DNA of 64,000 bases, taken from assembly GCA_044892525.1 (NCBI GenBank), contig CM097885.1:5520001-5584000 (forward strand), written 5' to 3'. The DNA is from Schmidtea polychroa (Eukaryota). The position numbers were made by a program, and so were the translations under genes. The number at the start of each line of letters is the position of its first letter. Position 1 is the first letter of the stretch. Positions 11,553 through 24,592 of this stretch are shown piece after piece. A model generated the notes under the pieces. It was given only the letters and a program-made list of their open reading frames with translations. It was not told the DNA's origin and did not search any database.

Positions 11553-11910
11553 AGTAGATGGATTGGTCACCGCGAAAACAGGTCACCGCCAGCATAAAGA
11601 CATTTTTACCCCACCCCCCCCCCCCCCGTCGGAAAAATTTTTAAAAAAAATTTTTTTTTTCAACTTGAGAACAAAGACATATGACTCACCTGATGACTCA
11701 TTTATTATTATTATTTTTAAAAATATTATTATTTCTAATGTCTTTGTGCTCGCGGTGACCTACTATTTGGCCTGCCAAAGTTATCGTTCCCATCAACTTA
11801 TTTCATCGATCGATAGTTTATTTTGAAGCTTAGTGCAAGAGCTTTCAAATGAACTATTGTTGTCATCACCATCCCTAATATTGGCAAAGTTATTAACATT
11901 TTCCCAAGAC
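11553..11910. repeat. Left TIR of the Polinton (358 bp)
   Basis: Reverse complement of 24059-24592 apart from about a dozen substitutions, homopolymer indels and the 43-bp array. Confidence 0.9.
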
Positions 11911-12508
11911 ATTATTATTATTATTATTATTATTATTATTATTATTATTATTATTAATATTATTATTATTATTAGTATTAATCTATATACTCCGAGTTTA
12001 TCCGACAAAATATTTTATCCCCCTATGGGTAATGCTCACAAGGATACTGCTCACGCTCAACAACTCACAAGGGTATTATTATTATTATTATTGTTATTAT
12101 TATTATTATTATTATTACACAATAAAAATATAAAATTTCTAACAAAATTCTTTCAAAAGTTCTGTCATCAGGATCCACACGAATCTCATCATTAACAAAT
12201 ATTATTATTATTATTATTATTATTATTATTATTATTATTATTATTATTATTATTATTATTATTATTATTATTATTATTATATAATTTCAAATTTCTATCA
12301 CAAATCATGGTTAACTAAAAACATAGTCGAATATTTTAAAATTTATAGTATTGTGTTAGCACACACTCGTTATAATAATTAGCAATATGAATATAGTTTT
12401 CCTGGTGTATCAAATCAAAACCTTTCTTTTACATTTATAGTCTATCAACCAATCAGAATCATACGGTATTAGTATAAATAAAACATTATATTTTAAATTA
12501 TTTTAGAA

Positions 12509-13029
12509 ATGTCTCATTTTATTGAAAATATTTTAAGCGAAGTTATCAACAAGAACATCATGGAAAGCCTCAGTTACTTGGTCGATCGGACAGAAAAAAT
12601 TATCGAAGGGAATCACATCAATTACGAAGATATGCTCAAGTCAGATTGCCTAGAAACAAAAAAGTTTTATTTTCACCGGATATTTAATTGTCTATGTAAT
12701 GACGAGATGAAGTGGACCCGAATAATAGTAAGGTTTGCTTATATAAAAATCATCATAGAAAAAGGTTTATGGGACTCCGAGCACTATTATCAGTGGTCTC
12801 AAGAAGTAATACTTTTATAATCTATATTTTAATAATATTTATTTTCTAGATAATCAAGTCCAAGTTTACACCATGGATAGAAGCCAATGGTGGATGGGGT
12901 GTATTGAACCAACTAGCTCGAAATGCAAAAGAAATCGACGAGGACAAAATGAAGTTTAAAACCTATGTAAAACTTGCAACAGGTGTTGCTATTTTGTATG
13001 TTATATCTCGATTTTTAAATAAAAATTAA
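12509..13029 (+). CDS. Spliced Bcl-2 family protein, 158 aa (exons 12509-12805 and 12850-13029)
   Basis: 44-nt GT-AG phase-0 intron; BH1-like DEMKWTRIIVRFAY, BH2 PWIEANGGW, C-terminal hydrophobic anchor LATGVAILYVISRF; CCAAT (12442) and TATAAATA (12473) upstream. Confidence 0.85.
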
Positions 13030-13155
13030 TGTAGTTATTTTGTTTTTTAAATAGATTTTTAAATAAAAAATTAATCTAGTTATTTTTATTTATTTTTTTT
13101 TTTTTTAAATAAAATTAATATAGTTATTTTAAATAAATTTACAAACAATAATTAA

Positions 13156-13902
13156 CTAAAATTTATTAACACATTCGCAGTCGTCATCTCCACATTTCAT
13201 TATATTTTCAACGACATGATCAATACAATCATTCGTAATATTATCTTTAGGTTCCTCTATAGCAGGGGTCTCAAACACGCGGCCCGCGGGCCGCATGCGG
13301 TCCGCTGCGTTACATTTGGCGGCCCGCAACGAAAAAACATAGATTTGTAATTTAACCAAACTTATTTAACAATTAAAATCATAATTGGCTGTATAAATTA
13401 AAACTTATCTTTTTAATTATTTTTATTTATACATATGACGTTATACATATTATTATTATTATTATTATTATTATTATTATTATTATTATTATTATTATTA
13501 TTATTATTATTATTATTATTCTTAATAATAAAAAAATGTTTTTTAGTTTTGTTGAGTTTTTAATTAAATAAATATTAACGTCGGAGTTTCAGACTCCACA
13601 TGTTCTGAAAAACAATTATTTATGTTGCGGCCCGCCGGCTCATAATAGTAGTCTAATGCGGCCCGCAGGCCAGTTTGAGTTTGAAACCCCTGCTCTATAG
13701 GTTCATCTATAGGTTCATAGATTTCGTCATCAATTTCTTGAGTATCGGTTTCTTGAGTTTCTTCCTGATCGTCAAATCCTGAATCTTGACTCTCAACTAC
13801 CCAGCCGATATTTAATGCATTTGTAACAGATAATATGTCCTCAATTTTTACACCAGCTATTTCTGCTAATTTTTCCAACAAAAAGTTGATTAATAATTCC
13901 AA
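13156..13902 (-). pseudogene. Acidic Polinton accessory ORF split by a hAT MITE
   Basis: Removing 13263-13692 and one TSD joins ...EPIDEPIE to EPKDNITNDC...CECVNKF* in frame; true start codon uncertain. Confidence 0.7.
13263..13692. mobile_element. hAT (Charlie-like) MITE, 430 bp
   Basis: TIR CAGGGGTCTCAAAC / GTTTGAAACCCCTG; 8-bp TSD CTCTATAG; GCGGCCCGC subterminal repeats. Confidence 0.9.
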
Positions 13903-14091
13903 ATAATAAATAATTCGGTATTTAATTAATCATGTTAACCTTTTTCTGCAGTCATTTTCATCACTTTAAAGCTATATTTTAAGTTTGTTTATAGATTTTC
14001 TTTGTTAAATTTGCATGGCATTTGCATTTATGTTGCAATTAATAAATAGAAAAAAAAACAAATATGACTAATACATTTATTAAATATAACA

Positions 14092-23069: not shown

Positions 23070-23468
23070 CAGTGCTCGAAGTGAGGCGGGATAGCCGGGA
23101 TATTATCCCGGCATTGATTATGTAGGCGGAATTGCATCCCGGCACTTCATTTCATATAATCTATAGGTTTATCCCGGTACTTATTTCATTTTATAGGCAC
23201 ACAAATACTGCAATTAAGGTCACACATAGTACATCCATATATGTATGTATATATATATTCTTTATTCTCTATTCTCTATTCAATTAAGAATTTCCCAAGC
23301 AGCAGTAATGGATAGGTAGGTATATTCTGAAACTTATGATTAAATGGGTGGACACCCTCCCCAAAGTTTTGCAACACCCCCAACTGAAAATTTCTGCATA
23401 AAAGCCTGGAATCCCGGGTGCCACAGCATGCCTATCCCGGCACATATTTTGTTCCACTTCGAGCACTG
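23070..23468. mobile_element. hAT MITE, 399 bp
   Basis: Perfect 14-bp TIR CAGTGCTCGAAGTG / CACTTCGAGCACTG; 8-bp TSD GTAACCAT. Confidence 0.92.
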
Positions 23469-23519
23469 GTAACCATCTTAATCAGTTTTTTATAAAGAAA
23501 CTTACTCTCTTTAAACGGA

Positions 23520-23890
23520 TAAATAAAAATGCAAATAAAAATGTAAATAATGATGCGATTAGCGCAGAACATAAAAATTTAAATAAAACTGTAAATAAAA
23601 ATGTAAATAAAAATGCAAATAAAAATATAAAAAATGATGCGATTAGCGCAAAACATAAAAATTTAAATAAAACTGTAAATAAAACTGTAAATAATGATGC
23701 GATTAGTGCAGAACATAAAACTGTAAATAAAAATGTAAATAAAACTGTAAATAATGATGCGATTAGCGCAGAACATAAAACTGTAAATAAAAATGTAAAT
23801 AAAACTGTAAATAATGATGCGATTAGCGCAGAACATATAATTAAAAATGTAAATAATAATCTAAATAAAAATGTAAATAAAAATGTCAAT
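23520..23890 (+). repeat. Coding minisatellite: 12-bp units inside ~60-bp units (NDAISAEHKTVNKNVNKTVN x5)
   Basis: Five ATGATGCGATTAG(C/T)GCA cores separated by AAATAAAA(C/A)TGT units; all keep the reading frame. Confidence 0.85.
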
Positions 23891-24058
23891 AATAAACGGC
23901 CTGCTGTTATTCAAGATTCTTGTATACCATCTAAAGTTATTAAAGTTAATGGTGGTGATGAAATAAATATTCAAATTAATAAGCCAATAGGTGGGTCAAT
24001 ACACGGTTCAGTCGATATAGATGACGAACCTAATAATAATTATATATCATTTAACAAG

Positions 24059-24592
24059 GTCTTGGGAAAATGTTAATAACTTTGTCAATATTAAAGATGG
24101 TGATGACAACAATAGTTCATTTGAAAGGTCTTGCACCAAGCTTCAAAATAAGCTATCGATCGATGAAATAAGTTGATGGGAACGATAACTTTTGGCAGGC
24201 CAAATAGTAGGTCACCGCGAGTACAAAGACATTAGAAATAATAATATTTTTAAAAATAATAATAATAAATTTATATCATTGATGAGTCATATGTCTTTGT
24301 TCTAAAGTCGACCTTGAATGCTTGATGAGTCATATGTCTTTGTTCTCAAGTCGACCTTGAATGCTTGATGAGTCATATGTCTTTGTTCTCAAGTCGACCT
24401 TGAATGCTTGATGAGTCATATGTCTTTGTTCTCAAGTTGACCTTGAATGCTTGATGAGTCATCAGATGAGTCATATGTCTTTGTTCTCAAGTTGAAAAAA
24501 AAAATTTTTTTAATTTTTCCGGCGGGGGGGTGGGGTAAAAAATGTCTTTGTGCTGGCGGTGACCTGTTTTCGCGGTGACCAATCTATCTACT
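24059..24592. repeat. Right TIR of the Polinton (534 bp) with a 43-bp tandem array
   Basis: Reverse complement of the left TIR; units GATGAGTCATATGTCTTTGTTCTCAAGTCGACCTTGAATGCTT at 24281, 24324, 24367, 24410, partial copies at 24453 and 24465. Confidence 0.9.

Follow-up and report, generated by a model that had tools for sequence, protein, structure and literature searches.

The 64-kb window of Schmidtea polychroa DNA analysed here (C1:5520001-5584000, part of a 781-Mb, AT-rich genome) contains a Maverick/Polinton element of 13,040 bp (positions 11553-24592 of the window) with inverted repeats at both ends, a set of virion and integration genes and no catalytic domain of the protein-primed DNA polymerase B (pPolB). 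The initial annotation of this stretch had left two explanations for the lack of a polymerase, namely a one-off deletion or a polymerase-less lineage that relies on a helper element or on host replication. The element is very probably a decaying copy of a high-copy, pPolB-encoding, adintovirus-like Maverick/Polinton family, which has suffered a one-off internal deletion of about 4 kb. The one-off deletion is supported by a deletion junction that is unique among the loci scored, by a relic of the pPolB gene that ends at this junction and by sister copies that bear pPolB. A polymerase-less lineage is refuted by sisters that have the same termini, share a major capsid protein (MCP) of about 99% identity and carry the polymerase gene.

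The pPolB relic and the deletion junction

The earlier statement that no open reading frame (ORF) or relic in the element resembles pPolB is incorrect, since the N-terminal approximately 260 residues of the polymerase remain on the forward strand in two parts, at 22857-23069 and 23469-24030. The first part corresponds to residues 1-71 of a 658-aa ORF in the closest sister copy, with which it shares 100% identity, and contains a Cys/His-rich motif. The second part corresponds to residues ~70-258 with 89% identity, covers a repeat-rich linker and breaks off at position 24030; in a tblastn search with the sister's 658-aa N-terminal pPolB ORF, this match extended over 23471-24013. Window positions 22896-23069 also match the first 58 residues of the pPolB of a related family, which include the Cys/His-rich motif, with 53% identity. 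Judged by the continuity of the ORF in two relatives, the segment 22857-23069 agrees with the beginning of the main exon of pPolB. By tblastn, no part of the sister's 827-aa polymerase ORF was found anywhere in the 64-kb window, and the catalytic pPolB domain (PF03175) had no match within it either. The initial annotation had pointed to 11911-12500 and 21950-22900 as intervals in which a polymerase relic might be hidden; a relic indeed exists, but it lies mostly outside both.

The two parts of the relic are separated by a hAT-like miniature inverted-repeat transposable element (MITE) of 399 bp (23070-23468), which has perfect 14-bp inverted ends starting with CAGTG and is flanked by an 8-bp target-site duplication (TSD; 23062-23069 and 23469-23476). 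The same MITE is present at at least 25 other loci with 99-100% identity, and was therefore active very recently. The MITE is missing from contigs of the public runs X5 and X7.

Alignment of the window with the closest sister defines the deletion junction. The segment 23469-24030 can be aligned with the sister as far as its position 12876, and the match picks up again with the right terminal inverted repeat (TIR) at sister position 16850, leaving the window without 3,973 bp relative to this sister. The left edge of the deletion follows ...GATGACGAACC, and the right edge falls within an (AAT)n microsatellite next to the inner end of the right TIR. The innermost ~200 bp of the right TIR are missing as well, while the left arm still has their counterpart.

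The occurrence of this junction was analysed by genome searches in which the best first-look candidates were scored, so that all counts are lower bounds. A 300-bp probe across the junction (window 23881-24180; 40 of 1,410 candidates scored) is spanned by the window's own locus alone, i.e. by one of the 40 scored loci. Of its 46 matches, 25 end at base 150/151, 14 begin at base 151 and six are short pieces, and when both halves of the probe are found on one strand of one locus, they are 3.2-4.6 kb apart. A corresponding 300-bp probe for the undeleted state, taken from the sister across the break point, is fully spanned in 35 of the 40 scored loci (of 912 candidates) with an identity of 80-100%, and the remaining five are partial matches. 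A 1,993-bp query covering the right end of the element has a full-length match in the window alone (40 of 4,636 candidates scored). Copies that share the deletion and differ in their flanks, as expected of a non-autonomous derivative family, did not appear among the best 40 of 1,410 candidates. Matches of query bases 94-132 beside other TIRs were considered as further deletion variants and rejected, since these bases are only the (TAA)n microsatellite usually found next to the inner TIR.

Sister copies and the origin of the deletion

Three 20-kb neighbourhoods of other copies were compared with the window. The closest sister (C1:172260300-172280299) is an element of 15,850 bp with TIRs, AGTAGATGG termini and a 6-bp TSD of its own (GACAAT), which shows the same gene order, 96-97% nucleotide identity and an MCP that is 98.7% identical to that of the window. 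Its 658-aa frame comprises the Cys/His motif and the repeat-rich linker and extends into the conserved polymerase region, and an overlapping 827-aa frame contains the PF03175 domain (E 8.9e-28, 97.8 bits versus a cut-off of 25.8). The closest sister is itself damaged by a deletion in the penton gene and by frameshifts. A second copy (C1:185322219-185342218) combines a 99.5% identical MCP with a fragmented pPolB downstream of the protease gene, and a related family with ~73% nucleotide identity encodes a 1,389-aa pPolB after the protease, on the opposite strand. As a separate observation, residues 76-111 of the sister's polymerase frame (L046:3933-6413), just upstream of PF03175, resemble an Endonuclease_7/HNH-like zinc motif, with a score just under the cut-off (E 6.8e-5, 23.1 bits versus 23.6).

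Retention of pPolB is also seen in the family at large. At least 109 scored matches (of 4,833 candidates) share 99-100% amino acid identity with the window's MCP, and in a genome search with PF03175 all 91 scored matches were above the cut-off (of 8,821 first-look candidates), with open frames of up to 1,484 aa. At four loci, paired by their coordinates, a 99% identical MCP is followed by pPolB 5.1-5.5 kb downstream: the closest sister (C1:172268956/172274232) and the pairs C2:49959142/49964649, C3:114448909/114454203 and C1:153631852/153636934. The pPolB ORFs of the three non-sister pairs are 1368-1409 aa long. A pPolB that is 97-99% identical to that of the sister at the amino acid level is present at ten loci, with open frames of up to 1,445 aa, and in eight of these ten the match is free of internal stops. 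In addition, one contig of the public run X5, whose match to the window ends at 24030, carries a further 25 letters that are equal to the sister's sequence leading into pPolB. Thus, sister copies with the same TIRs carry pPolB across a definable junction at 24030|24031, the very combination that the initial annotation had named as the evidence that would speak against its polymerase-less reading.

The MCP genes of 30 copies (435 pairs) differ at synonymous sites with a pS of 0.046 and at non-synonymous sites with a pN of 0.0016, corresponding to a pN/pS of ~0.035 in a sample that consists of the best scorers by protein similarity and is biased towards low pN. This suggests that the MCP copies descend from lineages under capsid selection and not from neutral decay. 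Further copies are found upstream of the window, where a 99% identical MCP is located 44 kb before the window start (C1:5475745-5476872) and a 94% identical pPolB 16 kb before it (C1:5503952-5506255). The family is therefore dense in this region of the chromosome.

The most plausible course of events starts from a pPolB-encoding copy, in which an internal deletion of about 4 kb would have removed pPolB from about codon 260 to its end, along with the spacer and the innermost stretch of the right TIR. The deletion probably occurred after integration and may have been caused by slippage or illegitimate recombination at the (AAT)n microsatellite. The MITE would have inserted later into the leftover 5' part of pPolB. 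Several points weigh against this reconstruction. The order of deletion and integration is deduced, and the TSD and the termini are equally expected if an already deleted genome had integrated. The size of 3,973 bp is given relative to one imperfect reference, the damaged sister. A second copy with the same junction could in principle exist, although a full-length match should rank first. Finally, among the contigs listed for four public runs, which are short and have 7,684 further pieces outside the listing, none bridges 24030|24031. This absence of a bridging contig is no evidence either way, and the junction is thus documented by the assembly alone.

A deletion that preceded integration is improbable. 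In this scenario, a defective genome would have been replicated and packaged with the help of a co-resident polymerase and would have integrated once, via its own or a helper integrase. The perfect 6-bp TSD and the two intact termini agree with such an event, and many potential helpers with a 97-99% identical pPolB are available. Nothing, however, sets it apart from a deletion after integration; the deleted form was seen in one copy only among the scored loci, the innermost right TIR was removed, and the right breakpoint falls within a microsatellite, where chromosomal slippage and deletion typically occur. If it were true, it would be a case of natural trans-complementation between Mavericks, much like a defective-interfering provirus. 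Even lower is the probability of a polymerase-less Polinton sub-family, which would use a helper or host polymerase and maintain its own virion module and accessory genes. Such a lineage would explain why termini and TSD are intact and most virion genes open, and the many apparently intact pPolB genes of the genome could act in trans. It is largely refuted by the junction, which is spanned in one of 40 scored loci and at which the 39 other matches break exactly, and by copies with a 99% identical MCP that carry pPolB. Retention of a useless 5' pPolB stump, interrupted by a MITE, is likewise unexpected of such a lineage, as are a stop codon at the MCP initiator and an integrase truncation that are found in this copy only.

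The least probable explanation is an assembly artefact, in which the assembler would have jumped across the (AAT)n stretch from the 5' region of pPolB to the terminal repeat of another, near-identical copy. The very high copy number of the family and the position of the right breakpoint at a microsatellite would favour such a jump, and so would, weakly, the lack of a bridging contig among those listed for the four public runs, for which most pieces are outside the listing. The matching TSD on the two flanks is nevertheless what is expected of one real element, the 13 substitutions between the two arms form a pattern of their own, and the locus is part of a chromosome-scale contig of 271.6 Mb. 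A one-off deletion in a pPolB-encoding copy therefore remains the preferred explanation. The MCP and integrase lesions and the MITE fit a dead copy better than a working polymerase-less virus, and the element is a dead, decaying provirus-like copy and not a replication strategy.

Termini, virion genes and accessory genes

The element is flanked by the TSD TTCTAT, which is identical on both sides (11547-11552 and 24593-24598). The left TIR (11553-11917, forward strand) has the terminus AGTAGATGG, which is common to the closest sister, and the right TIR (24031-24592, reverse strand) ends at its inner edge at the deletion junction, beside a remnant of the (AAT)n microsatellite. Aligned with each other, the two arms show 349 matches and 13 mismatches (96.4% identity), plus indels of a tandem unit, so that the TIRs and the perfect 6-bp TSD described initially are borne out. 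The right arm is longer than the left because it contains 4.3 tandem copies of a 43-bp unit (24279-24462), versus one in the left arm (11660-11700). From this unequal number it follows that the TIR arms evolve by gain and loss of units.

The virion and integration genes lie on the forward strand. A 208-aa packaging ATPase of the A32/FtsK type (15815-16441) matches Pfam Pox_A32 (E 1.5e-7, 31.6 bits versus a cut-off of 22.8) and is followed by a basic protein of 182 aa (16457-17005), which had been called a core protein; it has no family match, and a role in the core is conceivable. The next gene encodes an rve-type integrase (17067-18128), with scores of 21.7-22.8 bits for rve and 17.9 bits for rve_3, all below the Pfam cut-offs. 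These scores are sub-threshold owing to an (ATT)35 stretch (17455-17565), which splits the domain and breaks the catalytic core within the TDLG/KEF motif. The stretch is perfect, 111 nt long, in frame and has GT..AG at its edges; it is also found in a sister copy and is absent from the integrase of the related family, and represents an intron filled with a microsatellite or else a poly-Ile insertion in frame. The integrase of the related family, which is 65% identical and without the stretch, reaches 45.5 bits versus a cut-off of 32.6. In addition, a premature stop at 18126-18128 cuts off a chromo-like tail of ~21 residues that is encoded by three relatives.

Both capsid genes are without a Pfam match and were assigned by AlphaFold2 models, each built from an alignment of 30 sequences. 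The 357-aa penton or minor capsid protein (18137-19210; pLDDT 89.7) has the mavirus penton as its best Foldseek match (E 8.3e-9), followed by the Sputnik penton and the adenovirus penton base. A 138-aa ORF (19197-19613), 62% conserved in the related family, precedes the double jelly-roll (DJR) MCP, which occupies a 405-residue frame (19559-20776; pLDDT 88.7). Its model matches the DJR MCPs of iridovirus, PBCV-1, mavirus and Sputnik with Foldseek E-values of 1e-17 to 1e-13, the best match being the iridovirus MCP (E 1.2e-17). Just before 19559, a stop codon occupies the conserved initiator position, which is kept in 29 of 29 other loci compared. The next in-frame ATG is located at 19646, and a start there would drop ~30 N-terminal residues that relatives conserve. 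The adenain-like cysteine protease (20817-21188) matches Pfam Peptidase_C5 (E 1.9e-6, 28.1 bits versus a cut-off of 21.3), and its open frame lacks an initiator, as it does in the sister copies. The ATPase, integrase, penton, MCP and protease genes listed in the initial annotation are thus confirmed by Pfam matches and structure models. The virion genes are indeed present, but to call the element complete, with a full virion module, overstates its condition, given the stop codon at the MCP initiator and the truncated integrase.

Most accessory genes are located between the left TIR and the packaging ATPase. The clearest case is a TBP-like protein of 145 aa with one clear TBP repeat (15278-15715, reverse strand), which matches Pfam TBP with an E-value of 9.7e-15, as had been proposed, and TBPs in the PDB with E-values down to 2.6e-10. 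The gene is arranged head-to-head with that of the packaging ATPase and is 55% identical in the related pPolB-bearing family, and is therefore a stable cargo gene of these elements. A proposed Bcl-2 gene on the forward strand (12509-13029) is weakly supported: it comprises two exons (12509-12805 and 12850-13029), each of which scores sub-threshold alone, with E 0.022 against Pfam Bcl-2 for exon 1 and E 0.25-1.3 against the BH2 region of Bcl-xL for exon 2. The exons are separated by a 44-nt GT..AG gap (12806-12849), with exon 1 ending at a codon boundary. Exon 2 also displays a BH2-like motif (W..NGGW) as well as a hydrophobic tail.

Three further ORFs between these two genes are on the reverse strand. 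The first, of 121 aa (13564-13929), is 73-74% conserved in two sister copies. The second, of 136 aa (14092-14502), had been described as SSB-like; it is a conserved ORF, with 98.5% identity in sister copies and 34% in the related family, but its identity as an SSB finds no match in a Pfam or PDB sequence search. The third, of 115 aa (14796-15143), is 98-99% identical in sister copies. Downstream of the protease, a small conserved ORF of 90 aa (21714-21986, forward strand) shows 92% identity in the closest sister and is likely the counterpart of a protein that had been annotated as a SIM protein, going by an acidic-hydrophobic motif recognised by eye. A candidate for this claim therefore exists, but it has no Pfam match.

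Comparison with known systems

A virion-bearing Polinton lineage without a polymerase of its own would have been a real surprise, and the evidence removes that reading. The window instead provides a worked example of how a Maverick copy decays, through a microsatellite-edged deletion, a MITE insertion and point lesions, in a family that as a whole keeps pPolB and a capsid gene with few amino acid changes among copies. The TBP-like and Bcl-2-like cargo of the family is a more interesting topic than the loss of the polymerase.

The element resembles Polintons/Mavericks in its long TIRs and 6-bp TSD and in its genes for an rve integrase, a packaging ATPase of the A32 type, an adenain-like protease, a DJR MCP and a penton protein. 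Intact copies of its family also carry the protein-primed PolB (PF03175), while the window copy differs by the deletion of the polymerase domain, and the short TBP-like and Bcl-2-like genes of the family are outside the core definition. The adenovirus- and Polinton-like gene set of penton, DJR MCP, adenain, PolB and integrase is shared with the adintoviruses, which are Polinton-like viruses of animals.

Degraded copies are a general feature of vertebrate Mavericks. In the survey of Barreat and Katzourakis (2021), mutational degradation is stated for 96% of 3,511 vertebrate loci, single core genes are absent from some loci that are otherwise nearly complete, and the core genes are under strong purifying selection (PMC8097293). 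The window copy resembles these loci in having lost one core gene through deletion, and the low pN/pS of the MCP (~0.035 in the biased sample of 30 copies) is a further parallel. It differs from them in its host and in belonging to a family of far higher copy number with very similar copies. Concerted loss of capsid genes is mentioned for some Polintons in a second study (PMC4028283).

Polinton-like viruses (PLVs) mostly have no rve integrase and encode another replication protein (PMC5499653). Like the window copy, PLVs combine a capsid module with the absence of a protein-primed polymerase; the window copy differs from them by the presence of an integrase and of a pPolB stump. No helicase or primase family was found among the window ORFs scanned against Pfam, and thus no substitute replication gene. 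Given the integrase, the pPolB stump and the lack of such a substitute, the absence of pPolB is a secondary trait confined to one copy. In all structural respects except the polymerase, which its family possesses, the element is a Maverick/Polinton, and it is thus a defective member by descent.

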